This document shows positions 4,073 to 64,000 of a stretch of DNA of 64,000 bases, one piece after another. A model generated the notes under the pieces. The model was not told the origin of the DNA. It searched no databases and worked only from the letters and a program-made list of their open reading frames with translations. Every line of letters begins with the position of its first letter. Within the stretch, counting starts at the first letter, position 1. The stretch is taken from IMG/VR virus record IMGVR_UViG_3300045988_150584. One strand, 5' to 3'. The position numbers and the translations under genes are program-made. Source of the stretch: a virus.

Positions 4073-4081
4073 CAGATTTTT

Positions 4082-21299: not shown

Positions 21300-21317
21300 A
21301 TAAATGGAGGTAACATT

Positions 21318-21734: not shown

Positions 21735-21737
21735 CTC

Positions 21738-42183: not shown

Positions 42184-42298
42184 GCCAGGGTAGCTCAATC
42201 GGTAGAGCGCGTAATAACGCGACTTGTTAAGCCGCTTGCAGCAAATTTCTTTTGGTCTGTTAAACCCGTGGTTGCAGGTTCGATTCCTGCCCCTGGCT
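42184..42298 (+). ncRNA. tRNA gene P5 (Asn-like CTGTTAA loop) with a ~44-nt insertion between the D-arm and the anticodon region
   Basis: Acceptor GCCAGGG/CCCTGGC, D-arm TAGCTCAATCGGTAGAGC, T-arm GCAGG-TTCGATT-CCTGC. The insertion carries GCAGCAAAT, and only a 3-bp GGT/ACC stem flanks CTGTTAA. Confidence 0.5.
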
Positions 42299-42384: not shown

Positions 42385-42502
42385 ACGGCAGTGGTGAAGC
42401 GGTAACACAGCAGCCATACAAATGCGAAAAGTGGATTTTCGCTAACAGCTATTTCACAATCCAAGCTGCCAATCGTAGGTTCGATTCCTACCTGCCGTTC
42501 CA
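42385..42502 (+). ncRNA. tRNA gene P6 with a ~43-nt insertion in the anticodon loop
   Basis: Perfect acceptor ACGGCAG/CTGCCGT. Anticodon stem GCAGC/GCTGC encloses CATACAAATGCGAAAAGTGGATTTTCGCTAACAGCTATTTCACAATCCAA. T-arm GTAGG-TTCGATT-CCTAC. CCA is encoded. Confidence 0.6.
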
Positions 42503-48574: not shown

Positions 48575-48763
48575 ATGAGAGATCCGAAGCGAATCCGAAA
48601 ATTCTGCAATGAGCTTGCAGATTTATGGGAGAGCAAATGTCCAGATTTGAGATTTGGTCAAATAATGGCTTATGTTTCAAGCAAATGTGGAGATTCATTT
48701 TATACGGAAGATGAAGAACTGATGAATCAACTAAAGAAAATATTTGAACGAGGTACAGTATGA
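48575..48763 (+). CDS. hypothetical protein
   Basis: 62 aa. Confidence 0.45.
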   Translation: MRDPKRIRKFCNELADLWESKCPDLRFGQIMAYVSSKCGDSFYTEDEELMNQLKKIFERGTV

Positions 48764-49311
48764 AAAATAAAACTACATGGATTATCGTTGGCATTGTTTT
48801 TGCCGTTATCATTCTGATTGTTGGCGTTTTTGCCGGTGCAAACAACAAAGCGGTATTTTTGGAAGAGCAGATTAACGGCGCTCAGGCCAATATCAATATT
48901 GCTGAAAAGCGTCGTGTTGATTTGGTTTATAACCTTGTGGATGCGGTACGGGCATATCAGGATTATGAGGGCAAAACGCTTGAGGCTATCACTGCTGCCA
49001 GATCCAGTGTAAGCAATGGTGATATTGATGAAGCAAAGGTGTCTATCAACGCTGTGGCAGAAGCGTATCCGGAGCTGAAAGCAAATGAAAACTATCAGCA
49101 GCTTATGAATGAGCTTGCTATGACAGAAAACCAGATCGCACAGTATCGCAATAATTATAATGAGCAGGTTCGAGCATATAACAAGATGATCCGGTCGTTC
49201 CCAAACAATGTCATTCTGAGCATTCTTGGATATGAGCGAATTGAAACGACCTATACTGACTATGGTGCGCCGGTCGATGCACCGCAGAATCTCTTTGATA
49301 ATGGTAATTAA
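48760..49311 (+). CDS. lemA: LemA-family membrane protein
   Basis: N-terminal TM segment, then ..RRVDLVYNLVDAVRAYQDYEGKTLEAITAARS.., ELKANENYQQLMNEL.., RNNYNEQVRAYN. Confidence 0.85.
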   Translation: MKNKTTWIIVGIVFAVIILIVGVFAGANNKAVFLEEQINGAQANINIAEKRRVDLVYNLVDAVRAYQDYEGKTLEAITAARSSVSNGDIDEAKVSINAVAEAYPELKANENYQQLMNELAMTENQIAQYRNNYNEQVRAYNKMIRSFPNNVILSILGYERIETTYTDYGAPVDAPQNLFDNGN

Positions 49312-50056
49312 AAAACGAGAACTGCTTTTCAGCATAATTATTGTCTGTGTCCTACTTTGCCTTGGCTTATTTATAAGCGGAAAGATTTCGTATGGAGCGG
49401 CGCAAACAGCGGAGAAGTATGCAACCGCAACGATTATTGAGGATCATTCGCAATTCCGGTACGGTATGAATACTGACTTCGGCAATGTGTTGCTGTATGG
49501 AGAGCTGAGTACGGATTCACCTGTGACTTTCGATGAGATTGGCAATGGTTATATTTACATTGAGAAAGTTCGTGAGGATTACACAAGACATACCAGAACC
49601 GTTACAAAGAAAGACAGCAATGGCAATACATACACAGAAACAGAGGTCTACTACTCATGGGACTATGTTTCCAGTGAACATCTTGCTACGGATACGATTG
49701 TGTTTTTGGATGAACCATTTTCATATGGCACAATTACTTTGCCAGTGCGACGTCTGAACTTGGCTGATGCAGGTGTTGAAAAGCAGCGATGGAACTATAT
49801 CTATAAGAACAGCGATACAAGATACTATTACAATGTAACAGATGTATCTCTTGTCGGGACTGTCTTTGCAACATTGAGTGACGGGACAATAAAGAACGCT
49901 TCTTCTTTATACGAAAACGATACTCCAACGGAAGTAATTGAATCCGTACAACAGTCGGAAACGCTTTATTTGATTTTCTTTTGGCTGGCTTGGGTGGTTT
50001 TTATGGTCGGCTGTGTTTATGGATTTTTGTATTTAGAAAATCGTTGGCTCGATTGA
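49301..50056 (+). CDS. membrane protein partner of LemA
   Basis: N- and C-terminal hydrophobic segments. Overlaps the lemA stop. Confidence 0.55.
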   Translation: MVIKKRELLFSIIIVCVLLCLGLFISGKISYGAAQTAEKYATATIIEDHSQFRYGMNTDFGNVLLYGELSTDSPVTFDEIGNGYIYIEKVREDYTRHTRTVTKKDSNGNTYTETEVYYSWDYVSSEHLATDTIVFLDEPFSYGTITLPVRRLNLADAGVEKQRWNYIYKNSDTRYYYNVTDVSLVGTVFATLSDGTIKNASSLYENDTPTEVIESVQQSETLYLIFFWLAWVVFMVGCVYGFLYLENRWLD

Positions 50057-50075
50057 ATATCAGAAAGGCAATGAC

Positions 50076-50282
50076 ATGAACCTATATGCTGTTTTTGCAG
50101 ATTATAGAAAGAACAATGAGCATAGATATCCGTATTATGTTTGTGCAAATTCTATTCGTGAGGCTCGAACAAAATTTCAAGATAAAATATCTTGGCTTAC
50201 GATATTAAAGATCGAGCCTGTAACGGATAAAGAGCTGTGTCATAGAATTTTCAGCAATCCATTGGGGTACATTTTCTTTTGA
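50076..50282 (+). CDS. hypothetical protein
   Basis: 68 aa. Confidence 0.45.
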   Translation: MNLYAVFADYRKNNEHRYPYYVCANSIREARTKFQDKISWLTILKIEPVTDKELCHRIFSNPLGYIFF

Positions 50283-50301
50283 TTTGTTTTGGAGGGGCAA
50301 A

Positions 50302-50913
50302 ATGATTATTGAAGACAAGCGATATGAGATTGATGAAGTTTTTCATATGATCGGAGAAGAGTATTTATCTCTTGACACGGATAAAGGGAAGAAAAACTCG
50401 GATATCGTAGTGGACGGGTTTCGCGTTCATCCGATTTCGCTCCGTTATATGACTTTCTATCAGAAAGGTACTGCATGTGCATATTGCGGAAAAGTCGGAA
50501 CGCATTTTAAGCTTTGTGGCGATCCAGATTCGCATCGTAGACATTTCAACTTGTTTGCAGATGACGGCTCTCTGATTACGAAGGATCATATTGTTCCTAA
50601 AAGCAAAAGCGGAAAAGATTGCGTTTCTAACATGCAGCCGATGTGCAAAGCGTGTAATACAGAGAAAGGTAACTATCATCCTGAAATTAAAGTTGATTAC
50701 ATCGCAGCATTAAATCAGAGAACGGGTAACACTTCCCTTTTTAGAACAATTAACAAAGCGGCATATCATGTTATTTCGGCGCATTTGCGTCCACCCAAGA
50801 AAGACAAGGATCTTATCATTAACACCTCGATCAATGCGGTACTTGCAATTCAGAATGCCATCAAAACTGGCTGTTCGTATTGCGGATACACATGGTCGAT
50901 TGAGCAGCGATAA
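50302..50913 (+). CDS. HNH endonuclease
   Basis: CAYCG.., ITKDHIVPKSKSGKDCVSNMQPMCKACNTEKGN. Confidence 0.85.
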   Translation: MIIEDKRYEIDEVFHMIGEEYLSLDTDKGKKNSDIVVDGFRVHPISLRYMTFYQKGTACAYCGKVGTHFKLCGDPDSHRRHFNLFADDGSLITKDHIVPKSKSGKDCVSNMQPMCKACNTEKGNYHPEIKVDYIAALNQRTGNTSLFRTINKAAYHVISAHLRPPKKDKDLIINTSINAVLAIQNAIKTGCSYCGYTWSIEQR

Positions 50914-50932
50914 GGAGCTTGTTAAATAATAT
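50911..50932 (+). promoter_or_regulatory. class-B motif copy overlapping a stop codon, 5' of an RBS
   Basis: TAAGGAGCTTGTTAAATAATAT followed by CAAGGAG. Confidence 0.45.
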
Positions 50933-50946
50933 CAAGGAGTGAAAAT

Positions 50947-51462
50947 ATGAAAGTTAGACGCGATTTTGTAACGAACAGTAGCTCCAGCAGTTTTATTATC
51001 GCTTTTGCGGATAAGGCTGATGGTCTACAACAGATTGACGATCTCAGACACAGATACGGCTCTGATTATGTCGATCAGCTCTTGAAGGATTTCTCAAACA
51101 GCGAACCGATCTCTCATGACAAAATCAGAGAGCGCTTTGAGGATGAGTTTGAGTGTGAGGCAAGCTACGTTCTCAGTTATGGCGATGATGGTTGGTGGTC
51201 TGATGATAAACCGACCTTTAGAAAAAAGTGGGAGGAAGCTCATCCTGGCGCAACTGGTGCTGACTTCTATAATTCTCCGGAGCGGAAAGCCGCTATCAAA
51301 GAGTATGTAGAAAATGCTTTCAAGAAGTTGTTTAACGACATTGGTTCTGCTCCATATCTGGTTGAGCTTGAATATGAAGACCATACGGATATTGGCAGTG
51401 CGTTAGAACACGATATTCTTCCAAACTGTGATTTTACGGTACGTGGTTTTAGTCATCATTAA
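50947..51462 (+). CDS. paralog 1 of the DFVTNSSSSS[FY]-motif family
   Basis: MKVRRDFVTNSSSSSFIIAF.. 171 aa. Confidence 0.6.
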   Translation: MKVRRDFVTNSSSSSFIIAFADKADGLQQIDDLRHRYGSDYVDQLLKDFSNSEPISHDKIRERFEDEFECEASYVLSYGDDGWWSDDKPTFRKKWEEAHPGATGADFYNSPERKAAIKEYVENAFKKLFNDIGSAPYLVELEYEDHTDIGSALEHDILPNCDFTVRGFSHH

Positions 51463-51476
51463 AAGGAGGACACGAT

Positions 51477-52037
51477 TTGAAATTTCGCAAAGATTTTGTG
51501 ACCAATTCCAGTAGCTCCAGCTATACATGTGATATTTGTGGCGCAACGGAATCTGGCTGGGATATTAGTTTAGAAGAGGCCGGCATGGTTGAATGCGTAA
51601 ATGGGCATACGATCTGCAATGATGAGCTGCTTGAGATTCCGCGCAAAGAGCTGATTAAAAAGATTCTGGAATCTGGTTACGAGACTGAAAGTGAAGAAGA
51701 GCTGAATAGTCAGCACGACGATGATTCACTTCTCGATATCTTCTGGGATCAGGCAGACAATCGTTATGCTGCTCCGGAAGAGTTTTGTCCGATTTGCCAG
51801 TTTATCGAGTATTCGCAGCACGATCTTGGAAAGTATCTTGAAAAAGAGTACAAGGTTTCCCGCAGTGATGTGTTCGCAAAGGTGAAAGCGGTGAATAAGC
51901 GCCGCAAGAAGCTATACGACAGCGAATATGTGACAGAGGTATGTAAGCAGTTCGATCTTAATCCTGTCGATATTGTAGCTGGTCTGAAGAAGAGATTCGT
52001 TACCTACCGTGCATTCAGCGACTATATTCGGAGGTAA
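51477..52037 (+). CDS. paralog 2 of the DFVTNSSSSS[FY]-motif family (with a Zn-ribbon insertion)
   Basis: TTG start after AGGAGG. KFRKDFVTNSSSSSYTCDICG..CPICQ. Confidence 0.6.
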   Translation: MKFRKDFVTNSSSSSYTCDICGATESGWDISLEEAGMVECVNGHTICNDELLEIPRKELIKKILESGYETESEEELNSQHDDDSLLDIFWDQADNRYAAPEEFCPICQFIEYSQHDLGKYLEKEYKVSRSDVFAKVKAVNKRRKKLYDSEYVTEVCKQFDLNPVDIVAGLKKRFVTYRAFSDYIRR

Positions 52038-52042
52038 TTGAA

Positions 52043-52477
52043 ATGAAAATTAGAGAAGATTTTGTAACGAATAGTAGTAGCTCAAGCTATGTTATCGCCT
52101 ATAAAGCGTCTCCAAACTTCGATGAAGAGACTATTCAGCGCTATCCGATTCTGAAAGGGTTTACCACTGTTTTAGAAAGCGTTTTGCTTGCCGCAAATGA
52201 TTATGGTGACACGACAGAGGGCGAGCAGATTAAAACCATTGAGGAACTGGATAAGTATTTTGTTGGATGCTATGGATATGGGGAGATCAATACGCTTCCA
52301 CGCATCTTGGATGATGACCATTATCTAAAAGAACATTATGATAAGTGTTCTAAGCTGTTAAACGATGGTTATAACATCGTTTTCAAGCAGGTCGATTATA
52401 ACGATAGCACTTTTGATTCTATCATTCGCAACCTGGCAAACACAGATGGCATTGTCCAGATTATTGCTGATGAATAA
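52043..52477 (+). CDS. paralog 3 of the DFVTNSSSSS[FY]-motif family
   Basis: MKIREDFVTNSSSSSYVIAY.. 144 aa. Confidence 0.6.
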   Translation: MKIREDFVTNSSSSSYVIAYKASPNFDEETIQRYPILKGFTTVLESVLLAANDYGDTTEGEQIKTIEELDKYFVGCYGYGEINTLPRILDDDHYLKEHYDKCSKLLNDGYNIVFKQVDYNDSTFDSIIRNLANTDGIVQIIADE

Positions 52478-52490
52478 TTGGAGGTAAACC

Positions 52491-53930
52491 ATGTACGCAG
52501 CATATGTAACTCGTATTAAGAATTTGCGCAAACATTCAAACGCGGATCGACTTCTCTGCGGTGAATGTTTTGGCAATACGGTAATTGTGGGCTTGGATAC
52601 AAAGCCAGAAGAGCTGGGTGTCTATTTCCCCGTAGATGGCAAGCTTGGCACTGAGTATGCGGTGAAGAACGACCTGCTTCGCCGTAAGGATGAGAACGGT
52701 AAGCCTGCTGGTGGTTATCTCGATCCTGAAAAGCGTAATATTAAGGCGTTGAAGCTTCGTGGCGAAAAGAGCGATGGCTTGTTTATGCCATTGTCCAGTT
52801 TGAGTGGGTTCACAGATATTGCAAAGCTCCGTGATGGCGATGTAATTACCATTTTGAATGGTGTTACAATTTGTGAGAAGTATATCCCCCATCGTAAGAA
52901 GAGTACCATTATGGTTGGGGGGGGTAGGACTCGTAAGCATCACGATCCTGTTGCTCCGCTCTTTGCGGAACATGCTGACACGGAACAGCTCGCATATAAC
53001 CTCAGCGCATTTCACCCAGGCGATCTTGTTGAGATTACTTTGAAAATGCACGGCACATCTCAGCGAACCGGATATCTACCAATGCTTAAAGGATATAAGA
53101 AGACATTGCTTGATAAGCTCCTACATCGCATTGGTTCTCCGATTTATAATTGGGGATATGTAACTGGTACTCGTCGTGTTGTCTTGGATGATTTTGACGG
53201 TGGCTTTTATGGTAGCAATGCTTTCCGTGAACAGCATAGCAAGGTTTTTGAAGGTAAGCTGCATAAGGGCGAAACCGTGTACTATGAAGTCGTTGGCTTT
53301 ACGCAAGACAAGCAGCCTATTATGGCATCTTGCGACAATAAAAAAGTCGGTGATAAGGAATTTGTTAAACAATACGGCGAAAAGACAGTGTTTAGCTATG
53401 GTTGCTATCCAGACGGTGTAAAGGAAGTAACAAATCCGAAAATTACACACGCAACAGTAATGATTGGCGATACCTCTTTTACAGCAAATGAGATTACGGA
53501 ATATGAATCTGCTCCGCAGTCTGATTTCTATGTGTATCGAATGACAATGACAAATGAGGATGGCGATGTTGTTGAATACACACCAGACTTTATGCGTTAT
53601 CGTTGTGAACAGATGGGCGTTAAGTGTGTTCCGCTATTTGCTCGATTCATTATTCCGGATTACATTCAGCTTCCTGATGCTGTTGGGTCTCCGATGGCTG
53701 TCAATGCTGGCGAATATGTCAAGGAAATTGCTGAAAACTTCTATGATGGTGCAGACCCGATTGGTAAGTCGCATGTCCGCGAGGGCGTTGTTTGCCGTAT
53801 CGTAAACCGCCCAAAGTTTACAGCATATAAGCACAAGAATTTTGCATTCAAGGTGCTTGAGGGAATTGTAAAGGATGTTGCGTCTGCTCCGGACATGGAA
53901 GAAGCGCAAGATGATGTAAGCGTTGCATAA
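52491..53930 (+). CDS. ATP-dependent RNA ligase (Rnl2/Rnl5-like, N-terminal OB module)
   Basis: N-terminus YVTRIKNLRKHSNADRLLCGECFGNTVIVG (DRB0094-type OB). Nucleotidyl-lysine motif EITLKMHGTS (KxHGT). An in-frame G8 tract at 52917-52924 encodes GGG. Confidence 0.8.
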   Translation: MYAAYVTRIKNLRKHSNADRLLCGECFGNTVIVGLDTKPEELGVYFPVDGKLGTEYAVKNDLLRRKDENGKPAGGYLDPEKRNIKALKLRGEKSDGLFMPLSSLSGFTDIAKLRDGDVITILNGVTICEKYIPHRKKSTIMVGGGRTRKHHDPVAPLFAEHADTEQLAYNLSAFHPGDLVEITLKMHGTSQRTGYLPMLKGYKKTLLDKLLHRIGSPIYNWGYVTGTRRVVLDDFDGGFYGSNAFREQHSKVFEGKLHKGETVYYEVVGFTQDKQPIMASCDNKKVGDKEFVKQYGEKTVFSYGCYPDGVKEVTNPKITHATVMIGDTSFTANEITEYESAPQSDFYVYRMTMTNEDGDVVEYTPDFMRYRCEQMGVKCVPLFARFIIPDYIQLPDAVGSPMAVNAGEYVKEIAENFYDGADPIGKSHVREGVVCRIVNRPKFTAYKHKNFAFKVLEGIVKDVASAPDMEEAQDDVSVA

Positions 53931-54050
53931 CGACATTACGCATCTTATCCATCAATGTCGAACGGTGTGCTGGAATATATACGGATTTGGTAGCTCCAGC
54001 ACACTGCCGACATATTGTCAGAGATTGTATTTTGAAAGAGAGGTGCTGTG

Positions 54051-54872
54051 ATGAGTGACAGAGAAAAGATTATGAAGCGGCTTTCTGAACACCTCGAAGC
54101 AGTAAGAGACAAACACCCTGAGTGGGTTGGTATTTTTCTTCAAGGTTCACAAAACTACAACTTAGATTATGAGGGCAGCGATATTGATTCCAAGCTGATC
54201 GTCCTCCCTTCGTTTGAAGATTTTGTTTTGAACAAGAGACCGTATAGCTACACACACATCATGGAAAACGATGAACATGTAGATGTTAAGGATATTCGTC
54301 TGATGCTCGATTGCTTCAAAAAGCAGAATGTAAATTTTGTTGAGATTCTTTTTACCCCGTACCGTATCTTGAATCCAAAGTACGAAGCTTTGTTTCAGCC
54401 GATTCTTGATATTGCAGAGAGAGTCGGTCGATATAACAACTATGCTGCATTGAACTGCATGGTCGGAATGGCGCTTGAAAAGCAAAAGGCATTGTGCCAC
54501 CCATATCCTGCAACAAAAGACAAGATTGATAAGTACGGTTTCGACAGCAAACAGTATCATCATATCGAGCGTCTTTATGAGTTCATGCAGCGTTGGCTTA
54601 ATGGCGAGCCATATCGTGATTGCCTCATTTCTAAGCAGAGAGAACGTCTTAGAGAAATCAAGCTTTATATTAACTGCGATCTTACAACGGCGCAGGCCAA
54701 TTCGGACAGAATTGTATCTGAGATGAAGTCAATCAAGGACACTTATATGCAGCAGAATCCTGTCGTGATAGATCGTGAGGTTGATTCAGTTTTCAATAAG
54801 GTTTTGCTTGATTTATTTAAGTTTAATTTCCAGTGTGAGATTGGTAACGGCTCGCCTAATAAAAAGGAGTAA
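54051..54872 (+). CDS. Pol-beta-superfamily nucleotidyltransferase
   Basis: GIFLQGSQNYNLDYEGSDIDSKLIV (GS..x..DxD). Confidence 0.6.
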   Translation: MSDREKIMKRLSEHLEAVRDKHPEWVGIFLQGSQNYNLDYEGSDIDSKLIVLPSFEDFVLNKRPYSYTHIMENDEHVDVKDIRLMLDCFKKQNVNFVEILFTPYRILNPKYEALFQPILDIAERVGRYNNYAALNCMVGMALEKQKALCHPYPATKDKIDKYGFDSKQYHHIERLYEFMQRWLNGEPYRDCLISKQRERLREIKLYINCDLTTAQANSDRIVSEMKSIKDTYMQQNPVVIDREVDSVFNKVLLDLFKFNFQCEIGNGSPNKKE

Positions 54873-54876
54873 GAAT

Positions 54877-55791
54877 ATGTCTATCTTTTTTATGATGGTA
54901 GGTCTTCCGTACAGCGGAAAATCTGTTTATGCGGAGGGGCTGCGAGAGAAGTTCGGTGCAGAGATTCATTCCAGCGATGCAATTCGAGCAGAGATCCTTG
55001 GAGATGTACAGGATCAGACAAACAATCAGATTGTTTTTGATACTCTGCACAAGCGAGTAATTTCTGATTTGTCTGCTGGTAAAAATGTAATTTACGATGC
55101 GACGAATATCAATTACAAGCGGCGTATTGATATGCTGAATCGCTTGTCGAAGGTGAAGTGTCAGAAAGTCTGTATCGTTATGGCGACACCTTTTCACGAA
55201 TGTGAAGAGCGTAGCAAGCATCGTGAGCGGGTTGTCCCACACGAGGTTCTTGTGCGTATGTATAAGAATTTCTGGCTTCCGTATTGGTATGAGGGGTGGG
55301 ACGCAATCGAGCTTGTTTATCCAGATAATTTTGAGCCGTACAGTGTAAGTGATTTATTTAATCGTGATGGAGGGCTGAATAGCTTTGAGCAGGACAATCC
55401 ACATCATACTTTCACGGTTGGGCATCATTGTATCGCTACATATGGGCTTGTTTCTGATGGAAGCACAGAGCTTCAGGAGGCTGCTCTTCTTCATGATATC
55501 GGAAAGCCTTTCACAAAAAGCTTTGTGAATAGCAAGGGCGAAACAACAGAGATTGCTCATTATTATGAACATCAGCATGTTTCCGCCTATGATAGCTTAT
55601 TCTACTCAAATCCGAGTTTGAATCGGCTGTATATCGCAAATATCATCCAGTGGCATATGCGTCCGTTTGAGCTTGAACGAGACCCCCATTCTGGCAAAGC
55701 GCAGAAGCGGTTCAAAAAGCTTGTCGGCAATAAGCTTTATTCAGATGTGATGAAGCTTCATGCCGCTGATATCGAAGCAAAAGGAACTTGA
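54877..55791 (+). CDS. polynucleotide kinase (P-loop) fused to an HD phosphohydrolase
   Basis: MMVGLPYSGKS (Walker A), YDATNINYKRR, and C-terminal HH..LLHDIGKP (HD). Confidence 0.75.
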   Translation: MSIFFMMVGLPYSGKSVYAEGLREKFGAEIHSSDAIRAEILGDVQDQTNNQIVFDTLHKRVISDLSAGKNVIYDATNINYKRRIDMLNRLSKVKCQKVCIVMATPFHECEERSKHRERVVPHEVLVRMYKNFWLPYWYEGWDAIELVYPDNFEPYSVSDLFNRDGGLNSFEQDNPHHTFTVGHHCIATYGLVSDGSTELQEAALLHDIGKPFTKSFVNSKGETTEIAHYYEHQHVSAYDSLFYSNPSLNRLYIANIIQWHMRPFELERDPHSGKAQKRFKKLVGNKLYSDVMKLHAADIEAKGT

Positions 55792-56752
55792 TAAACAATA
55801 CAAAGTGGGTGTTTGGCATTTACAGTAAAGAAGACTTAGATGTAATGCAGTCATGGGATTTGCAGCGAAAAATTCAAGTGACTACAACTCGTATCATTGA
55901 GTGGTATGAGCATTTCGGCGGAAGCGTTTATGTTGCTTTTTCTGGTGGTAAAGATAGTACGGTTTTGCTTGATATCGTTCGCCGTATTTACCCAGATGTG
56001 CCGGCTGTATTTTGTGACACTGGCTTGGAATTTCCGGAAATCCGAGAGTTTGTTAAGCAGCATGATAATGTTGTGATTCTGCGACCTGAGATGAATTTCA
56101 GAAAGGTCATCGAAACATACGGATATCCAGTTGTCTCAAAAAGAGTTGCCGACACTGTAGAATATGGCAGTAAGCCAGGTTCTTATCGGTGGAAAGAGCT
56201 TCACGGAGAGATTATCCGTAGCAATGGTACTCCGTCGGAGTTTAACTGCGAAAAGTGGCGCTATCTTCTGGACGCCCCATTTAAGGTTTCTTCTCGTTGC
56301 TGCAATATTATGAAGAAGAAGCCGCTGAAGAAGTATTTCAAAGAAACTGGTCGCGTTCCCATTATTGCAACTATGGCAGACGAGAGCCGATCTCGTCGAT
56401 CTACATGGATGAGACAGGGTTGTAATGCTTTTAGTAAGAAATCTCCAAGTTCTCAGCCGATGTCTTTCTGGACAGAAAATGATGTTCTTGAGTATTTGCA
56501 CACCTACAATATTCCCTACGCCTCCGTTTACGGTGAGATCATACCTTGTGGGGGGGGTGGACAACGACAGGTGAAAGAAGAACTGGTTGTGTCTTTTGCG
56601 CATTTGGCGCTCATCTGGAGAAGTCCCCGAACCGTTTCCAGCGATTAAAGGAAACGCATCCTAAGCTATGGGAATATTGTATGAAGCCTTGGAGTGAACA
56701 TGGCTTAGGTATGCGAACAGTATTAGAGTACATTGGTATTCCGTGTGAATAG
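55788..56752 (+). pseudogene. PP-loop 'PAPS reductase'-family gene #1, reading frame broken at a G8 tract
   Basis: VAFSGGKDSTVLLD (PP-loop). After G8 at 56550-56557 the conserved C-terminus (..TGERRTGCVFCAFG..) continues in another frame. G9 or G6 would restore it. Confidence 0.75.
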
Positions 56753-56768
56753 AAAGTGAGTTTTTGTA

Positions 56769-58078
56769 ATGCAACCAATTTTCAAAGAATACGCTCATTT
56801 CTTACATGATAATGGGTGTGATATATCTTGGTTTCAAGAAAGAACATATTGGTTGGATCACAACATTGTAAAAGCGTTCACGAGGGGGGGGGCAGCGGTT
56901 AGTTTCGCTATATAAGATTGTTGTTTCTGACGATCTTACCGTTGCTCTTACAAAACACAAACAAAATGTTGATGGTCTGCAATTTGAATCTTGGGACGAA
57001 ACTATCGCGCGTTTCAGACCGCATCTTGAAAGTATTGAGCATGATAGCATCGCTCTTCTTCGACAGTATGGAATTGGGACAGAGCGGAAAATAGTCAATA
57101 CAAATTCTACTGGCAAAGACAGTATGGTTGTTACACATCTTGCAAAAAAAGCAGGATTAAATTTTGAAACATATTTCAATGTTACAACCTTGGATGTTGC
57201 TGAAAGTAATTGTATGGCAAAACGGAATGGATTCAAACACATTCTGCCCAATCCGGAGTATGGTGGATTTTATAAGTACATCCAACGCTATGATGGGGGG
57301 GGGCAACCAAATGATACCAAGTAGATTGAATCGCTTCTGCTGCAATTATTTTAAGGAAAGTCCGACAATTGGCTATTTTCCTGATGATGAGCCTCTGATT
57401 TTCTTATTTGGAATGCGGAATCAAGAATCAGTTCGCCGGTCTGGTTATAAGGACATATGGAAAAACGAAAAGTGGGGCGAACGCGACTGGATCGCTCTTC
57501 TTCCAATTCGTCAATGGTCTGAGTTTGATGTCTGGCTTTATATTTTGTCGGAAGATATTGAGATCAACGACAAGTATAGATACGGATATGATCGCGTTGG
57601 ATGTGGTATTGCTTGTCCGAATTATACAAAGTATACATGGGTTCTTGATAAATACTGGTATCCATATTTGTTTAATCGGTGGAGAAATATCTTACGGAAC
57701 GACTTTATCAACAATAACAAGTGGCTCATTATGAATTGCACCGTCGATGAGTATGTGACAAAAGCATGGACTGGCGGTGTATATCGTGACGAGCCGACAG
57801 AAGATGTTATTTCTGAATTTTCTCAGTATTCTGGGCTGGATATATCAATTGCAAGAAAGTATTTTAATCGCTATTGCGCAAATGGATGTATTAACAAGCG
57901 CCGTCAGCCTCTTCGGATCAAAGATAGAAATGCTCTTGCCATGAATATGAAAATGTTTGGAAGAAATATAAATCATTTTTTGTGCAAGAAATGCCTTATG
58001 AAAGAATTTGGTTGGAACAAATCTCAATGGGACGAAAAAGTCAGCGAATTCAAAGCGCAAGGCTGTCAATTATTTTGA
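56769..58078 (+). pseudogene. PP-loop 'PAPS reductase'-family gene #2, frame broken at two G9 tracts
   Basis: NSTGKDSMVV (PP-loop variant), ..RLNRFCCNYFKESP.., ..GCGIACPNY.. G9 tracts lie at 56884-56892 and 57295-57303. G8 at each would give one continuous ORF. Confidence 0.7.
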
Positions 58079-58099
58079 AAAGAAATTAGTTAAATAACT
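58079..58099 (+). promoter_or_regulatory. class-B motif copy 5' of an RBS
   Basis: AAAGAAATTAGTTAAATAACT followed by CAAAGGAG. Confidence 0.45.
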
Positions 58100-58117
58100 C
58101 AAAGGAGAACACAGTAT

Positions 58118-58639
58118 ATGAAGATGGACAAAGTTGCTGGCAGTGGGAATGACGAATTCTACACGCCAGAGTATGCAATTACACCTATTGCAAAGTATCT
58201 TGCACCCCCCCCCGCCGTAATTTGGTGTCCGTTTGATACGGAAGACAGTTTGTTTGTGAAGCATTTTAGAGCTGCTGGGTATACAGTTTTGGCAACACAT
58301 ATTTGTAATGGTCAGGACTTTTTTACTATGGAGACTCCAAACTGTGACTACATCATTAGTAATCCTCCATATTCACTTAAAGGTGATGTTATTGACCGCC
58401 TGTTTGAAATCGGAAAACCGTTTGCAATGCTTGTTGGCGTTGTTGGATTGTTTGAAAGCCAACATCGGTTTAACCTTTTCAAGTCACATGAATTTGAAAT
58501 TATGTATTTGAATAAGCGCGTTTCATACTTTAAGGACTATGCAGAGCAAAAACCGTCGCTTAATCCTCCGTTTAGTAGCGTCTATATTTGTAGCAAAATG
58601 CTTCCAAGAACCATTGTATTTGAAGAAATCGACAAATAA
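58118..58639 (+). CDS. N6-adenine DNA methyltransferase (small Dam-like, NPPY)
   Basis: DEFYTPEYA.., IISNPPYSLKG. An in-frame C9 tract at 58205-58213 encodes PPP. Confidence 0.75.
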   Translation: MKMDKVAGSGNDEFYTPEYAITPIAKYLAPPPAVIWCPFDTEDSLFVKHFRAAGYTVLATHICNGQDFFTMETPNCDYIISNPPYSLKGDVIDRLFEIGKPFAMLVGVVGLFESQHRFNLFKSHEFEIMYLNKRVSYFKDYAEQKPSLNPPFSSVYICSKMLPRTIVFEEIDK

Positions 58640-58651
58640 TAGGAGTTTTCA

Positions 58652-59533
58652 ATGAGATATACTACTTCCCTTTTCTGCGAGTTCGATAAGTACGCAGCAG
58701 AAAGCTATTGTGCGGTTCATGACACAGCTCCGGAGCTAAATATTGGTGATATTACAAAGGCAGATGAGAAGTCTGTACCTGATTTCAACACCATGTTTGG
58801 CGGATCTCCGTGTCAGGACTTCTCTATCGCAGGGAAACAGGGGGGGGCTGCATGGACATGTAAAAACTGCGGTCATACATATAACCCCCTTGAAGCCCAT
58901 TACACAGAGCGAGATAAATGCCCGAATTGCGGTTCGACTAAGATTGAGAAAACACGCTCGTCTCTTTTGGTTGAATGGCTGCGCTTCCTTCGGGAGAAAA
59001 AGCCTCGTTTTGCTATCTATGAAAATGTCAAGAACATTGTAGGCGCTCGTTTTAGACCGACATTCGATCTGTTTGTTAAAGAGCTTGAGGACTACGGTTA
59101 CAATGTTCACTGGCAAGTATTAAATGCGAAAAATTATGGTATTCCTCAGAATCGAGAGCGTGTCTATTGTGTTATCATTCGTAAAGATTTGGATAACGGA
59201 AAGTTCAAATTCCCAGAGCCTATTCCGCTTAAACATACGCTTGCCGATATGTTAGAAACCGATGTCGATGAAAAATACTATCTCAGTGACGAGAAAGTAG
59301 CTGCAATGATTACCCCCCCCCGCAGCGAATCAGTAAAACAATCCGAGTTGGAGGAAGAAATTCAGCCGACAGACAACATCAATGGGACTTGGTTGCAGAA
59401 AACACATGGAGTCCGATTGAGTAACAAAGGCAACAAGTTTGATGGATATAGTGATATTGCTCTAACTCTTCTTGCGAGAGACTATAAGGGTTTTGGCAAT
59501 CAGCAAATGACAGGAGTAATGGAAATTGACTGA
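58652..59533 (+). CDS. C5-cytosine DNA methyltransferase, N-terminal catalytic part plus first TRD
   Basis: GGSPCQDFSIAGK (motif IV), YENVKNIV (VI), QNRERVY (VIII), TLLARDYKG. A Zn-ribbon insertion is present. In-frame G8 (58840-58847) and C9 (59313-59321) tracts. Confidence 0.8.
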   Translation: MRYTTSLFCEFDKYAAESYCAVHDTAPELNIGDITKADEKSVPDFNTMFGGSPCQDFSIAGKQGGAAWTCKNCGHTYNPLEAHYTERDKCPNCGSTKIEKTRSSLLVEWLRFLREKKPRFAIYENVKNIVGARFRPTFDLFVKELEDYGYNVHWQVLNAKNYGIPQNRERVYCVIIRKDLDNGKFKFPEPIPLKHTLADMLETDVDEKYYLSDEKVAAMITPPRSESVKQSELEEEIQPTDNINGTWLQKTHGVRLSNKGNKFDGYSDIALTLLARDYKGFGNQQMTGVMEID

Positions 59534-59648
59534 TAAAATTATTCAAGTTGGGAACTGGACGCAAGGTGCAAAACGCGAGAATCCGCAAAGAGGTCGAGTA
59601 TACGATCCGTCAGGAATTGCACCATCCCTCACCTGTATGGGGGGGTAA
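59526..59648 (+). pseudogene. TRD fragment of the C5-methyltransferase locus ending at a G7 tract
   Basis: ..QRGRVYDPSGIAPSLTCMGGG*. G7 lies at 59639-59645, and one G fewer continues as GGNLQPFIIV.. Confidence 0.5.
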
Positions 59649-59698
59649 TCTTCAGCCGTTTATAATCGTCCGTAATGAACATGTTGAGTTAGAAAGTA

Positions 59699-60775
59699 GT
59701 GCTGATGAAGAGTAGCGTTTTAATTCCCGCAGCAATTCACGGTCGTTATTCTGACAATGGTAGTATTGTGCAGCGATTAGAGCTTAGGCCAGATAAATGC
59801 ACGAATACGCTTACCTCTGTACAGAAGGACAATATTATAGTGGAATGCTGCATTGATATCCGTTTCTCCACTGAACGGAGTGAAGATGTGAAAGAAAACA
59901 ATATGCCAGTCAATGTTGGAAATGTAAATCCGTCTGGGCATGGAATGAACGGTACGGTCTACGACGCAGATGGCGTTTCTCCGACATTAACGACGAATAA
60001 AGGAGAGGGCGTAAAAATCCGCATTAAATCACCTACGCCCTTACACCAGACAATTATCTATGATGACTACAATAGGAGGATCAAGTCGGATCAGACTTGT
60101 ATAGGAACAGTTATGCCAAATTTCAAAAATGACGCTCCTGGCAATGGAACTAAGCTGATTGAAGTAAGTCCTACACCAGAGGATAAAATCACAATGCTTG
60201 GCGGCTTGCAAAAGCACCAGACTCCGAGAGACGATGGTATCTGCCCATGCGTAAATAGCGCTGCCGGTATGGGTGGTGGGCAAACGCCTATTGCAATGCG
60301 CCCAGGTTTTCGGGTAAGAAAACTCACGCCGAAAGAGTGTTGGCGTTTGATGGGTTTTGACGATGAGGATTTTGAAAAAGCACGCGATGCTATGAACGAG
60401 AATATTTATAATGGTAACGACCGTTCCAGTTCGCAGCTCTATAAGCAGGCCGGTAATAGTATTGTCGTAGATGTCCTTCAGCATATTATGGAGAATCTAT
60501 ATGACGCTATGCCATATCTGTTTGACGATATGTCTGTTGGATCGTTCTTCAGCGGTATTGGCGCTTTTGAAAAAGCTCTATCGCGGCTTGATACAAGGCT
60601 GAGCGAGAATACTCAGAATGGTTCTTCCGCCGAACTTACACAGATTGGATATATCAACGATTATAATGGAGACGCAAATCGTGTATATGATGGCGCTGCC
60701 ATTGCCCGTGCCTTGAAAGCCGAGGCGGGGGGGGCGGAGCAAAGACCGGATGGTACAGTGTCAATGCTTCGTTAA
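59699..60775 (+). CDS. C5-methyltransferase continuation: further TRDs plus motifs IX/X
   Basis: RLELRPDKCTNTLTSVQKDN, NGTVYDADGVSPTLTT, RKLTPKECWRLMGF, QLYKQAGNSIVV (motif X), then FFSGIGAFEKAL (motif I-like). The frame ends 41 nt after G8 at 60727-60734. Confidence 0.65.
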   Translation: MLMKSSVLIPAAIHGRYSDNGSIVQRLELRPDKCTNTLTSVQKDNIIVECCIDIRFSTERSEDVKENNMPVNVGNVNPSGHGMNGTVYDADGVSPTLTTNKGEGVKIRIKSPTPLHQTIIYDDYNRRIKSDQTCIGTVMPNFKNDAPGNGTKLIEVSPTPEDKITMLGGLQKHQTPRDDGICPCVNSAAGMGGGQTPIAMRPGFRVRKLTPKECWRLMGFDDEDFEKARDAMNENIYNGNDRSSSQLYKQAGNSIVVDVLQHIMENLYDAMPYLFDDMSVGSFFSGIGAFEKALSRLDTRLSENTQNGSSAELTQIGYINDYNGDANRVYDGAAIARALKAEAGGAEQRPDGTVSMLR

Positions 60776-60776
60776 A

Positions 60777-60920
60777 GTGATTGGAAGAATAATTCCAGAT
60801 AGCAAGAAGCTTCACCAAAATCAGGAAGTGTATGATACGGATTCGTGTAGCGGCGGAGGGCTTTCGCCTACGATTAAAGCCACGCACTACAAAGATCCAC
60901 CCAAAATTGAGGTGCAGTAG
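60777..60920 (+). pseudogene. TRD-like fragment
   Basis: ..QEVYDTDSCSGGGLSPTIKATHYKDPPKI.., in a different frame from the preceding ORF. Confidence 0.45.
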
Positions 60921-61123
60921 TGGAAACAGTCAGAATTAAGCAAGCCACAAAACAGGGTTTTATTGAGTGCGTCGTGGGGGGGGCTGTCGATCTCTCCTAT
61001 CCAAACTCAAAAACAAGGCGTGGTCGAGTACAAGAGGGCGGAACGATCTGCCCGACAATTACAGCACAGAATACCGGCATCTGCCTTATTGAAAAAGCAG
61101 ATTATTCCCGCAAATCCACTTGA
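60920..61123 (+). CDS. TRD-like ORF (GTG start)
   Basis: KQATKQGFIE..SKTRRGRVQEGGTICPTITAQ. An in-frame G8 tract lies at 60976-60983. Confidence 0.45.
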   Translation: METVRIKQATKQGFIECVVGGAVDLSYPNSKTRRGRVQEGGTICPTITAQNTGICLIEKADYSRKST

Positions 61124-61150
61124 CAGATAGCGTCAAGCGTGTTATTATAT

Positions 61151-61172
61151 AGAGGAAATAGCTAAACAATAT
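61151..61172 (+). promoter_or_regulatory. class-B motif copy
   Basis: AGAGGAAATAGCTAAACAATAT. Confidence 0.45.
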
Positions 61173-61206
61173 CGGAATGGCATGTAGCCATCCGTTTGGT
61201 TCTTTC

Positions 61207-61228
61207 AAAGGAATTAGCAAAATAATTT
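61207..61228 (+). promoter_or_regulatory. class-B motif copy 5' of an RBS
   Basis: AAAGGAATTAGCAAAATAATTT followed by ATTAAAGGAG. Confidence 0.5.
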
Positions 61229-61246
61229 ATTAAAGGAGTTCAGTTT

Positions 61247-61708
61247 ATGGAAAAGCGAATGGTTTCTTATCCGTATCCGAGTCAGAACATTGTTAGTAGC
61301 ATTTTGGATGATGTATTGCGTTCTGTCAGCGCTGCGAGCGTTCCCGCAAATCGTCCTACTGCTATGACGGCGGTTCACCAGCCGGCGCAGGTCATCTTTA
61401 ATCCTCCTGCCACGATTGTGTATTGGAGAGATGGTACTAAGACGGTCGTGCGCTGCGACAACGACGAGTTCTCTGAGGAATTCGGCTTTGCGATGGCCTG
61501 TATGCGCAAGATCTTCGGTACTCGAAATGCGTTTAAGGCGCAGTTCAAGAACGCATACCGCCCTTATCTGAAAAAGAAAAAGGAAAAGCATACCGATAGC
61601 TGTGAGGTCAAGCATTCCGATGCTCCCATCTCTTTGGATAAGATGCTGCGTGATTTTGCTGGAGATGACAGCGTTGGTGTCGCTATTGGATTTAAGCCCA
61701 AGGAGTAA
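61247..61708 (+). CDS. hypothetical protein
   Basis: AAGGAG RBS. 153 aa. ATIVYWRDGTKTVVRCDNDEF is a recurrent phage motif. Confidence 0.55.
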   Translation: MEKRMVSYPYPSQNIVSSILDDVLRSVSAASVPANRPTAMTAVHQPAQVIFNPPATIVYWRDGTKTVVRCDNDEFSEEFGFAMACMRKIFGTRNAFKAQFKNAYRPYLKKKKEKHTDSCEVKHSDAPISLDKMLRDFAGDDSVGVAIGFKPKE

Positions 61709-61739
61709 TCCTTATTTCGTATGTGTTGAGTGCGGCTGT

Positions 61740-61964
61740 GTGTTTCAAGAGCCAAAGCATTATATCGAAACGCATGGTCTCGACACTCCACCATATGAGC
61801 ATTTTACAGTTTGTCCTCATTGCGGCGGAGCGTTTGTAGAAGCACATCGTTGTGATTGCTGCGGTGAATTTATTACCGCCGATTACATTGTGGTTCAAGA
61901 TGGAAAACGCTATTGCGAAGAGTGCTATTCTATTCGGAACATTGAGGATGATTTAGCTGCATAA
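61740..61964 (+). CDS. Zn-ribbon protein, start unresolved
   Basis: CVECG..CPHCG..CDCCG..CEEC. There is no in-frame ATG near the AAGGAG at 61700. The GTG at 61740 is the first canonical start. Confidence 0.45.
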   Translation: MFQEPKHYIETHGLDTPPYEHFTVCPHCGGAFVEAHRCDCCGEFITADYIVVQDGKRYCEECYSIRNIEDDLAA

Positions 61965-61978
61965 ACGGAGGTTTTAAT

Positions 61979-62578
61979 TTGATTAGCGATAAGTTGGGAC
62001 AATCATTGAAAGAGGAATTTCTTTTGATTTGCAAGAGAGATATTTGTCGAGATGGAATCGAAGAACTGTTAGGATGGGTAGAAGAAAGTGATTTCTTTTA
62101 TGCTCCAGCAAGTACAAGATTTCACGGCAATTACAAATATGGTCTGTTAGAGCATTCTTTGAATGTTTACAAAGCCTTAAAGGAACTTGTTAAGCAACAC
62201 GAAGAGGTTGAGGTATCCGATGAGACGCTTGCAATTTCTGCACTATTTCACGATATTTGCAAGGCAAACTTATATGTCGTAGGGAGCAGAAATGTTAAGG
62301 ATGAGCAGACGGGCCAATGGCACAAGGAAGCAATTTATAAGCATGATGACCAGTTTCCTATTGGTCATGGCGAAAAGTCTGTGATTATTTTGCTTCGGCA
62401 TATGGCTCTCACAGACGATGAAATTTATGCGATTCGCTTCCATATGGGCGGATTTGATTCCGCCGTCAAAGGCGGAGATGGAAGTATCAGCAAAGCTTAC
62501 GAACTTTGCCCGCTTGCGGTGTTACTCCATCTTGCAGATATGACCGCAAGTTATCTTATGGAGGATCGTAATGCCTGA
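61979..62578 (+). CDS. HD-domain phosphohydrolase
   Basis: TTG start after GGAGG. FHGNY.., LFHDICKAN, IGHGEKS. Confidence 0.7.
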   Translation: MISDKLGQSLKEEFLLICKRDICRDGIEELLGWVEESDFFYAPASTRFHGNYKYGLLEHSLNVYKALKELVKQHEEVEVSDETLAISALFHDICKANLYVVGSRNVKDEQTGQWHKEAIYKHDDQFPIGHGEKSVIILLRHMALTDDEIYAIRFHMGGFDSAVKGGDGSISKAYELCPLAVLLHLADMTASYLMEDRNA

Positions 62579-63335
62579 TGAAGCAAATTTGAATCTGGTA
62601 CAGAAACTTGCGAAGATCCGCGAAATGGTGGAGGTTCTTCGCAAGAATAAATCCGGATTTAACTACAAGTATGTTACGGAAGATGAGATTCTGGCGCGTG
62701 TGGCTGCCGGCATGAAGAAATACGGTGTGTCGCTGCAGCCAAGTATTGTTCCTGGCACACTTTCTGTAACGCCTGTCAGTTACACAAAAACAAAGAATAC
62801 AAAGTCTGGCGATCAGCTCAAAGAGGAAATCAACGAAACGCTTGTTCATGCAGAACTTACTTTTACTTGGGTAAACTGCGATGATGTAAATGATACTCTC
62901 GTTGTTCCGTGGGCATTGGTTGGACAGCAGGGCGACGCAAGCCAAGCTTTTGGTAGCGGCCTGACATATGCAAATCGTTATTTTATGCTGAAATTCTTCC
63001 AAATCGCAACACCGGACGATGATCCGGACAATTGGCGGAGCAAGAAGGAAGAGGCGGAACAGGAAGCTGAAATGGCTATTGTTCGTCCAATCATCACAAA
63101 GATTGACGATCATGTCAAAACATATCTGAATGCAAATGAAAATGAAGCCGGTGCGAGAAAGGCGCTTATTGAGGTTGTTAAAAAGTATGTCAAAGATGGC
63201 AATAAGCCAACTGCCGACTACATGAATTACCTCACAGATCCCACGGTCGCAGGAGAGCTTCTTGAAGAGCTTCAAAAGCAATTTCCAGTTGGAACAAAGA
63301 AAAAGTCAGTAGCAAAGAAAGAAGGTAATGCGTAA
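62571..63335 (+). CDS. erf: ERF-family single-strand annealing protein
   Basis: LVQKLAKIREMVEVLRKNKSGFNYKYVTEDEILARV.., SQAFGSGLTYANRYFMLKFFQI. Confidence 0.85.
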   Translation: MPDEANLNLVQKLAKIREMVEVLRKNKSGFNYKYVTEDEILARVAAGMKKYGVSLQPSIVPGTLSVTPVSYTKTKNTKSGDQLKEEINETLVHAELTFTWVNCDDVNDTLVVPWALVGQQGDASQAFGSGLTYANRYFMLKFFQIATPDDDPDNWRSKKEEAEQEAEMAIVRPIITKIDDHVKTYLNANENEAGARKALIEVVKKYVKDGNKPTADYMNYLTDPTVAGELLEELQKQFPVGTKKKSVAKKEGNA

Positions 63336-63769
63336 TGGGATTTCGTGAAGGTGCATTTGCTACGGTTTGGGAGATCACAAATCAGGGAGATACCTTCTCT
63401 AAGGTAAGAGTGTCCACAAGCCGTAAAGATAAGAAGACGGATGAATATGTAACCGACTTTAACGGATTCGTCAGTCTGATTGGCGAGGCGAACAAAAAGT
63501 TAGGTCTCATTGAGCGTTCTTTGGATGAAGATGGTCGGTGCAGAATCAAGCTTGGTGCTTGTGATGTCTCTAATCGCTACGATAAGGACGCAGGCCGCGA
63601 GTTTGTAAACTATACGCTGTTCGATTTCGAGATGCCTGATGGGAGCGGAGCTGATGCCGCAGAAGCTCCTAAGGAAAAGAAAACTCCAAAGGGCGGGAAA
63701 AAGCAGAAAGCAAAGCCGTCTGCTCTGACCGAAGAAGAGTCTGATGAAGACGAAGAACTCCCGTTTTAA
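63335..63769 (+). CDS. ssb: single-stranded DNA-binding protein (OB fold with an acidic tail)
   Basis: The N-terminus is OB-like. The C-terminal tail EEESDEDEELPF is SSB-type. Confidence 0.75.
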   Translation: MGFREGAFATVWEITNQGDTFSKVRVSTSRKDKKTDEYVTDFNGFVSLIGEANKKLGLIERSLDEDGRCRIKLGACDVSNRYDKDAGREFVNYTLFDFEMPDGSGADAAEAPKEKKTPKGGKKQKAKPSALTEEESDEDEELPF

Positions 63770-63824
63770 GTCGCTTCGATGAATGCGGTGATGCACTATT
63801 CGATACGATTTAATCATCGAAGAT

Positions 63825-64000
63825 ATGACTTGGAGTTATTCAAGAGTAGCATCATTTGATGATTGCCCGTATAAGTGGTTTCTTTCCTATTTATATCGGG
63901 ATGAAAATGGACATTCTCTGAAAAAGAAAAGTGGCTTTTTTGCAGAATTCGGAAGCTACATGCACAAGATTTTGCAGATGTACTTGAGTGGTCTACTGGA
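63825..64000 (+). CDS. PD-(D/E)XK (Cas4/RecB-like) nuclease, 3' end beyond the window
   Basis: MTWSYSRVASFDDCPYKWFLSYLY.. is typical of the N-terminus of phage RecB-family exonucleases. Confidence 0.6.
   Translation, partial: MTWSYSRVASFDDCPYKWFLSYLYRDENGHSLKKKSGFFAEFGSYMHKILQMYLSGLL

Follow-up and report, generated by a model that had tools for sequence, protein, structure and literature searches.

Length-variable G/C tracts in a nucleic-acid-modification island of SPbeta-like gut phages are probable contingency loci

Introduction

Homopolymer tracts that change in length are known to diversify phages: hypermutable poly-G tracts have been described in Campylobacter phages (Sorensen et al. 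2021, Cell Rep 35:109214; cited in PMC12823448), and homopolymer contingency loci in T2, T4 and other phages (Gomez, Barrick & Waters 2025, bioRxiv; PMC12633550). Here we analyze runs of 7–9 G or C in a stretch of viral DNA, the IMG/VR record IMGVR_UViG_3300045988_150584, whose entire 64,000 nucleotides (nt) are referred to as the window. Ten of these runs lie in one island of genes with predicted roles in nucleic-acid modification and repair, and we consider it quite likely that they are contingency loci changing by slipped-strand mispairing.

By the account cited above, the tracts of the Campylobacter phages resemble the present ones in that poly-G runs of similar length lie within phage genes and that length changes lead to phenotypically diverse progeny. 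The window, however, belongs to a temperate SPbeta-like phage of gut Oscillospiraceae and bears ten tracts in a single modification/repair island. The Campylobacter phages with poly-G are reportedly lytic phages of a Gram-negative host, and the characterized tract is said to lie in a receptor-binding protein and to affect host recognition. In T2, switching of agt, the gene for a DNA alpha-glucosyltransferase, trades restriction by TgvAB against restriction by McrBC (PMC12633550). There, homopolymer slippage reversibly inactivates a phage DNA-modification gene, as it would in the window, and the trade-off logic proposed is the same in both cases. The T2 runs are poly-A of ~6–9 nt, they are spread over all gene classes and their switching was measured in the laboratory (PMC12633550), whereas the present runs consist of G or C (no other such run exceeds 5 nt), fall into one gene class, are conserved across species and are known from natural populations.

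Two further systems are related to the methyltransferase genes of the island. Phase-variable Mod methyltransferases of Haemophilus, Neisseria and Helicobacter constitute the phasevarions of bacteria (Srikhanta et al. 2010, as cited in PMC12707154). In these, methylation is turned on and off across a population by a simple-sequence repeat that lies within the gene of a DNA methyltransferase, and the methyltransferase genes of the present locus would be switched likewise. Phasevarions are chromosomal type III or type I systems with usually one repeat per gene; in contrast, the window carries prophage-borne orphan methyltransferases together with non-methyltransferase enzymes and up to two tracts per gene. 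The multispecific C5-cytosine methyltransferases of the Bacillus phages SPbeta, SPR and phi3T (Trautner et al. 1996, likewise as cited in PMC12707154) share with the window an SPbeta-type background (YonO-, YonV- and YorH-like genes) and a C5-methyltransferase with several modules that resemble target-recognition domains (TRDs). Those enzymes are single polypeptides with the canonical motif order I to X, in which the TRDs stand between motifs I–VIII and IX–X. The enzyme in the window is organized differently: it occupies two open reading frames (ORFs), motif I follows motif X, and G/C tracts lie in and between its modules.

An earlier note on this stretch, made from its letters alone, stated that it knew of no such cluster described for Firmicutes-type phages; phage contingency loci do have precedents (Sorensen et al. 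2021, cited in PMC12823448; PMC12633550). Full-text literature searches, which included phase-variable phage or prophage methyltransferases and phage contingency loci, turned up no account of this clade or of an island like it. The proposed mechanism is a known one, and what appears to be new is the setting, temperate SPbeta-like phages of gut Oscillospiraceae, and the architecture, with about ten tracts in one functional class that are conserved across species.

Results

Long G/C runs are over-represented and clustered

The window has a GC content of 43.8% and contains twelve G/C runs of 7–9 nt, which agree in base, length and coordinates with the list in the earlier note. The note counted eleven of them in a cluster at 52917–60983; the actual number is ten, the two others being located outside at 18013 and 39186. 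For G and C, run counts drop about 7-fold with each extra base (282 G3, 40 G4 and 5 G5 runs). Geometric extrapolation yields 0.24 expected runs of at least 7 nt compared with the twelve observed, and since runs of length 6 are completely absent the distribution is bimodal. In 200,000 random placements, 10 of 12 runs never fell within 8,066 bp (P<5e-6). The notion that these runs are very unlikely by chance is thus borne out by both number and clustering. Although GGG makes up 11% of the Gly codons, GGG-GGG accounts for 7 of 77 Gly-Gly pairs, where about one would be expected. All ten runs of the island lie in ORFs or directly upstream of them, which is where the repeat of a contingency locus is found.

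Tract lengths differ among near-identical genomes

Thirty-four near-identical contigs from independent metagenomes (L001–L030 and L149–L152) were found by exact-protein look-up; the assemblies originate from different studies and assemblers (metaSPAdes, MEGAHIT, Logan). Every tract varies in length among these contigs, including both outlying ones, and the lengths range from 6 to 11 nt. In L001–L020 we counted 99 indel events in the ten tracts of the island versus a handful of genuine ones elsewhere in 15–21 kb. The G/C runs of 7–9 nt differed from the window in 100 of 199 observations, whereas the corresponding numbers for control runs were 0 of 86 (G5/C5), 1 of 200 (A6/T6) and 5 of 26 (A7–8). 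Length polymorphism at the tracts is therefore far above background mutation, as in contingency loci. Two individual A runs vary as follows: A8 at 37776 is A7 in 3 of 9 near-identical contigs, and A7 at 57144, inside the second PAPS-reductase-family gene (PAPS2), is A8 in 2 of 17.

Tract variation is decoupled from relatedness. The mean number of tract differences is about 4–5 whatever the distance in single-nucleotide polymorphisms (SNPs), and each of the 21 tabulated genomes shows a distinct combination of tract lengths. When aligned to positions 48700–63900 of the window, L001 and L013 show no SNP at any of 14,192 sites, yet 7 of 10 tracts differ. The same lengths recur on different SNP backgrounds, which implies that the changes would be reversible. 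Interrupted alleles are rare and were found as GGGGGTG in PAPS2 of L002 and as the in-frame CCCCCCCAC in the catalytic C5-methyltransferase subunit (DcmN) of L012. As to the origin of L001 and L013, both come from one study (samples SAMEA3182086 and SAMEA3182110) and may represent one strain sampled twice.

The outlying tract at 39186 has lengths of 7, 8, 9 and 10 among L021–L030. At 18013, C7 and C8 alleles occur among L149–L151, and the called product changes from 289 to 213 amino acids (aa). This C7 tract lies at the edge of a stretch at 18000–22000 that has 52% GC in a genome of 44% GC and is situated at the strand-switch point; both of its strands have long ORFs that overlap, and one predicted protein there is of low complexity. 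At 41188, the related contigs L024, L028 and L030 carry a direct duplication of 10 bp (AATAAAATCA) that the window lacks.

Tract lengths set the reading frames of the island genes

Each tract length was varied in silico and the resulting ORF lengths were read off; frames called ON were checked against full-length homologues. Changes in tract length altered the genes in this analysis, and gene calls in 20 contigs likewise change with tract length. The window has the genes for the RNA ligase, the small methyltransferase and DcmN in the ON state and both PAPS-reductase-family genes in the OFF state (Table 1).

Table 1. Predicted features of the window; the last column gives the number of tracts found in homologues among the relatives surveyed
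Feature	Position	Strand	Remarks	Tracts in homologues
RNA ligase	52491–53930	+	G8 tract 52917–52924, in frame in the window; 479 aa	26
Nucleotidyltransferase-like gene	54048–54872	+	tract-free; used as control	
Polynucleotide kinase / HD phosphatase	54775–55791	+	tract-free; used as control	
PAPS-reductase-family gene 1 (PAPS1)	55845–56752	+	tract 56550–56557; G8 in the window, OFF	43
PAPS-reductase-family gene 2 (PAPS2)	56769–58078	+	G9 tracts 56884–56892 and 57295–57303	18
Small N6-adenine-methyltransferase-like gene	58118–58639	+	NPPY motif; C9 tract 58205–58213; ON in the window, 173 aa	34
C5-cytosine methyltransferase catalytic subunit (DcmN)	58652–59533	+	motifs II–VIII and zinc ribbon; G8 tract 58840–58847, C9 tract 59313–59321	83
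TRD-like leader ORF	59526–59648	+	ends in G7 tract 59639–59645	
C5-methyltransferase second subunit (DcmC)	59699–60920	+	TRD-like modules; motif IX 60308–60358, motif X 60434–60478, motif I 60533–60580; G8 tract 60727–60734	66
67-aa TRD-like ORF	60920–61123	+	G8 tract 60976–60983; PHROG 8411/16427 matches	7
orf153				18
Outlying G8 tract	39186–39193	+	near 3′ end of small zinc-ribbon ORF 38971–39249	
Outlying C7 tract (G7 on minus strand)	18013–18019	−	in called ORF upstream of integrase	
YonO-like single-subunit RNA polymerase	6437–9133	−	RNA-dependent RNA polymerase (RdRP) type	
Aminotransferase class V / cysteine-desulfurase-like gene	10137–11375	−		
YonV_C-domain protein	15105–16343	−		
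Tyrosine integrase	16834–17598	−		
RNA gene region	79–4157	−	15 tRNA genes	
Transfer-messenger RNA (tmRNA)	1685–2100	−	unusual predicted tag peptide AVDGCLNDALLVWVSICGNKESG	
ROOL RNA	3288–3895	−	full-length, 400 bits	
Rfam tRNA matches	41842–41952, 42184–42298, 42385–42499		111–115 nt; not called by ARAGORN	

It had been noted earlier that the frames of both PP-loop genes and of the C5-methyltransferase locus break exactly at runs and that the corrections needed differ in direction between tracts, the latter being confirmed by the in silico frames. For PAPS1 the break at 56550 is real: G9 gives the full form of 321 aa, whereas the G8 allele of the window gives 286 aa with an out-of-frame tail, and a match to PHROG 424 spans residues 21–301, through the tract, in the G9 frame only. 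The first in-frame start of this gene is a TTG at 55788 and its likely start the ATG at 55845; tract lengths among the contigs are 7–9. The breaks at 56884 and 57295 interrupt one conserved gene, PAPS2, which is repaired to 435 aa by G8 at both tracts and is intact in L007 and L020. Full-length homologues of 425–435 aa at 50–80% identity show this 435-aa form to be ancestral. The tract at 57295 encodes a lineage-specific ‘DGGG’ insertion that most PAPS2 homologues do not have.

In the RNA ligase, the G7 allele of L011 splits the gene into 183 + 282 aa. Its tract is lineage-specific and occurs in two lineages, in a variable Gly-rich loop, with intermediate lineages devoid of a tract. The small methyltransferase matches PHROG 799 across its C9 tract; among the contigs C8 predominates (14 of 20), which means that most samples have this gene in the OFF state. 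Gene callers report the 67-aa ORF at the end of the island solely at G8, and its tract has 7–9 nt among the contigs.

Functional assignments of the PAPS-reductase-family proteins and of the small methyltransferase gave NCBIfam matches that were all below cut-off, and a PDB sequence search returned only a weak match to CysD. The phage also encodes an aminotransferase class V / cysteine-desulfurase-like protein in addition to its two PAPS-reductase-family genes (DndC/SspD fold), a combination that hints at a possible sulfur-based modification of nucleic acids.

The C5-methyltransferase is split and apparently permuted

DcmN matches only positions 25–232 of the dcm profile, while DcmC matches positions 278–329, followed by an FxGxG segment. 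Grafting the motif-I segment of DcmC ahead of DcmN extends the dcm match to position 3 and adds 17 bits. The C5-methyltransferase (58652–60775) is thus split into two ORFs and appears to be circularly permuted. Related phages have the same arrangement, which is under purifying selection. The presence of several TRD-like modules in the DcmC region was judged by eye and from PHROG matches.

Both tracts of DcmN are in frame in the window (G8 + C9), resulting in 293 aa. The G8 tract at 60727 determines the end of DcmC: the product has 358 aa with G8, 360 aa with G9 and 406/407 aa with G7/G10, the latter reaching to 60920; among 19 contigs G9 is modal (14), followed by G8 (4) and G10 (1). The frame break proposed for this site therefore holds insofar as the tract changes the C-terminal end of DcmC, with three alternative outcomes in place of a single restored frame. 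The break proposed at 59639, on the other hand, had to be given up, as this tract terminates the TRD-like leader ORF and does not join two ORFs. With G9 the leader would be lengthened to 59715 and overlap the start of the DcmC ORF; lengths of 7–11 were found among the contigs. In the relatives L082 and L126 the DcmC ORF starts with the leader module, including its tract (at aa 37), whereas in the lineage of the window other TRD modules have been inserted as a block between the leader and DcmC. A role of the 59639 tract as promoter spacer was rejected on the same grounds. The catalytic subunit itself thus contains tracts, and others follow the first TRD-like module or precede an additional TRD-like extension.

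Genes and tracts are maintained across phage species

The ratio of non-synonymous to synonymous substitution rates (dN/dS) was computed against 14 relatives with a dS of ~0.15–0.3. Values for the tract genes were 0.03–0.08, including the segments 3′ of the tracts in the ON frame, compared with 0.04–0.09 for tract-free neighbors; the two tract-free control genes of the island (54048–55791) gave 0.05–0.07. No disabling changes other than tract length were found in the tract genes. Seven apparent in-frame stops, all in PAPS1 of relatives, were suggestive of decay at first. They probably lie 5′ of the true start at 55845, because the called gene begins at a downstream ATG in L019 and L002 (same 267-aa call), and decay of PAPS1 was set aside.

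The tracts of DcmN, 7–11 nt in length, occupy the same codons in relatives at 75–97% identity. For the aa-221 site this is true of 40 of 42 loci and for the aa-63 site of 41 of 44, and the flanking synonymous sites differ among these relatives. A relative at 54% identity has ordinary codons and no tract at either site. Tract positions are therefore conserved across phage species down to ~75% protein identity. With genes under purifying selection and tracts kept in place, the loci behave like contingency loci, in which the gene is kept functional.

We also surveyed 116 loci centered on RNA-ligase relatives (L033–L148, 21 kb each). Relatives with at least ~65% RNA-ligase identity (GC 42–55%) carry 2–11 G/C runs of ≥7 nt per 21 kb, the exception being L114 (67% identity), which has none. 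Almost none of these loci has a run of length 6, and with few exceptions the longer runs are situated downstream of the ligase. In relatives at lower identity (mostly GC 24–44%) the only tract is one G7 in L052, and long A/T runs do not take the place of the G/C tracts there. Of 375 tracts in the relatives, 295 lie in homologues of the island genes of the window (Table 1), and several of the remaining ones in Dam-like, N6/N4 and MT-A70-like methyltransferases; for about 40 tracts the automatic classifier chose spurious antisense ORFs, and these were left uninterpreted. A separate species (L031/L032, 38% GC) carries five tracts, all of them in a block of Dam, N6/N4 methyltransferase, PAPS and Dcm genes. 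L031 and L032 differ at one of these tracts, as a result of which a methyltransferase has 213 aa in one contig and 249 aa in the other.

Tracts are also found in isolate genomes and IMG/VR contigs. The loci in Hominicoprocola fusiformis (L036) and Dysosmobacter segnis (L037) have GC contents of 49.6% and 49.7%, an equal RNA-ligase match of 66% and the same tract coordinates. For these reasons the two strains may carry much the same prophage (the loci were compared without alignment); one tract differs in length, C8 versus C9 at 20903.

The window belongs to a temperate SPbeta-like phage

Besides the YonO-like, YonV_C-domain and integrase genes of Table 1, the window contains genes for an ImmA-type peptidase and a helix-turn-helix repressor, and a relative has a YorH-like gene. 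ERF, PDDEXK, DnaB-primase and DNA polymerase III (Pol III) alpha genes are located downstream of the island. Relatives exist as prophages in Clostridiales bacterium CCNA10, H. fusiformis, D. segnis and other Oscillospiraceae/Clostridia genomes. Given the Yon-type genes, the integrase, the repressor and the prophage relatives, we assign the window to an SPbeta-like temperate phage of gut Firmicutes; both the hallmark genes and a lysogeny module are present. The phage is common: in the index of the assembly collection, 887 blocks are listed for its exact RNA-ligase protein. A megablast search of the island against 50,697 phage records gave no match, and blastn gave only short matches in methyltransferase and PAPS genes; no close relative has been described among these records.

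Contigs of ~131–132 kb recur among the relatives. The three Rfam tRNA matches listed in Table 1 adjoin tRNA-Ser and tRNA-Leu genes and may represent intron-containing tRNAs or tRNA-like elements.

Discussion

The tracts of the island are non-random in occurrence, hypervariable in length, decisive for reading frames and concentrated in modification genes. The earlier note interpreted them as slipped-strand contingency loci in modification genes but also considered a trivial alternative, namely that length differences and frame breaks reflect homopolymer errors of sequencing or assembly and that each tract has one fixed in-frame length. Homopolymers are indeed a known source of indel errors, several genes of the window are broken exactly at runs, and the window by itself would be compatible with error. 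However, among the 34 independent assemblies from several assemblers the consensus lengths differ at every tract while the G5/C5 and A6/T6 controls stay put, and for this reason we reject sequencing error. Furthermore, consensus calling removes per-read error rates of ~1% or less, the lengths observed span more than ±1 around the in-frame value, in-frame interrupted alleles occur, and isolate genomes carry the tracts as well; an artefact of this kind is extremely improbable. The second alternative of the note was programmed slippage, by which two products would be made from one fixed DNA sequence. Homopolymer runs can make RNA polymerase or the ribosome slip, and at 60727 a TRD-like peptide with similar counterparts in relatives is encoded in either of the alternative frames. 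Programmed slippage is defined by a fixed and conserved slippery length, though, and here the length of the DNA itself varies at every tract between near-identical genomes, which suffices to produce the frame states; a stimulatory structure was not seen, although no search aimed at one was made. The idea thus fits poorly and is not needed, and we hold it to be very improbable as an account of the tracts; slippage at the level of RNA or the ribosome may occur in addition.

It could also be argued that the tracts are neutral mutational hot spots without benefit, located in dispensable genes that drift towards pseudogenes and clustered where frameshifts are tolerated. Random frames would give ON frequencies near 1/3 for one tract or 1/9 for two, as is roughly observed, essential genes of the window are free of tracts, and A7–A8 runs vary too. 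On the other hand, dN/dS in the tract genes is on par with that of their neighbors and other disabling mutations are missing. Position and purity of the tracts outlast divergence at the species level while flanking synonymous sites change. The tracts make use of the rare GGG codon, one of them lies in an inserted Gly stretch, and the same gene families bear tracts at other positions in separate species. The absence of length-6 runs means, moreover, that the lengths do not form a continuum of decay. Neutral drift is unlikely in the light of these observations, whereas saturated lengths among near-identical genomes, purifying selection and conserved tract positions all support contingency loci in modification genes, as suggested at the outset by the earlier note. 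Several points nevertheless weigh against contingency loci. The ON frequencies of PAPS1 (7/21), PAPS2 (2/21), DcmN (2/10 in the unbiased sample) and the small methyltransferase (2/21) are near random-frame values, so that the sampled states, probably mostly those of prophages, give no sign of current selection. The exception is the RNA ligase, which is ON in 9 of 10 genomes not selected on that gene. Retrieval was biased, since L001–L010 needed an intact RNA ligase and L011–L020 an intact DcmN; the comparisons were made between assembly consensus sequences of different samples; and for the PAPS-reductase-family proteins as well as the split methyltransferase the functions are predicted ones.

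If the tracts are contingency loci, we infer replication slippage as the cause. A G/C run of 7–11 bases would readily gain or lose one base by slipped-strand mispairing during replication, either by the Pol III-alpha-type enzyme of the phage in lytic growth or by the host replisome in the prophage state, and within a clone such changes would be reversible. Each change would shift the frame and turn the gene off, turn it on or provide it with another C-terminal end. The genes switched in this way would comprise the RNA ligase, the two PAPS-family PP-loop enzymes, the N6-adenine-methyltransferase-like protein, both C5 subunits, the two small TRD-like ORFs and the two outlying loci; the biochemical role of each is a prediction. 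Because the switches would act independently, a phage population could contain many combinations of modification and repair functions. The selective benefit is probably bet-hedging, in that a modification would shield the phage from restriction-modification in one host and expose it to modification-dependent (type IV) restriction elsewhere. RNA repair could fit into the same scheme: in T4, RNA ligase and kinase/phosphatase functions (Pnkp/Rnl1) counter defences of the anticodon-nuclease type. Switching in the prophage state would, in addition, make the methylome of the lysogenized host variable.

The C5 subunits and the N6-adenine-methyltransferase-like gene carry variable tracts and so, on the level of sequence, correspond to methyltransferases with phase-varying expression as in a phasevarion. 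As tracts lie within the catalytic subunit and between or around TRD-like modules, a switch of specificity is conceivable. One may speculate, with considerable doubt, that the island is a prophage-borne combinatorial epigenetic switchboard, in which at least eight independent hypermutable switches would re-program the nucleic-acid modifications of the phage and of its Oscillospiraceae lysogens, which are abundant in the gut. Tracts in and between TRD modules would then change the target specificity of the C5-methyltransferase and not just turn it on or off, which would amount to a phage-borne phasevarion with specificity switching by frameshift.

Practical consequences concern annotation and strain tracking: tract genes will be reported by pipelines as pseudogenes or as split ORFs, and the tracts should be masked when strains are tracked. 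Cultured lysogens are available (Dysosmobacter segnis BX15, Hominicoprocola fusiformis CLA-AA-H269 and strain CCNA10), which makes the idea directly testable. While the published phage cases were established with laboratory phages that infect Campylobacter and E. coli, the present signal comes from hundreds of human-gut metagenomes and indicates that a widespread temperate clade would diversify its repertoire of DNA modification and RNA repair by localized hypermutation. It also suggests that selection on phages in the gut fluctuates between restriction and modification-dependent restriction. Since the phage is temperate and the same switches are present in the lysogen, the methylome of the bacterial host could become heterogeneous as well.

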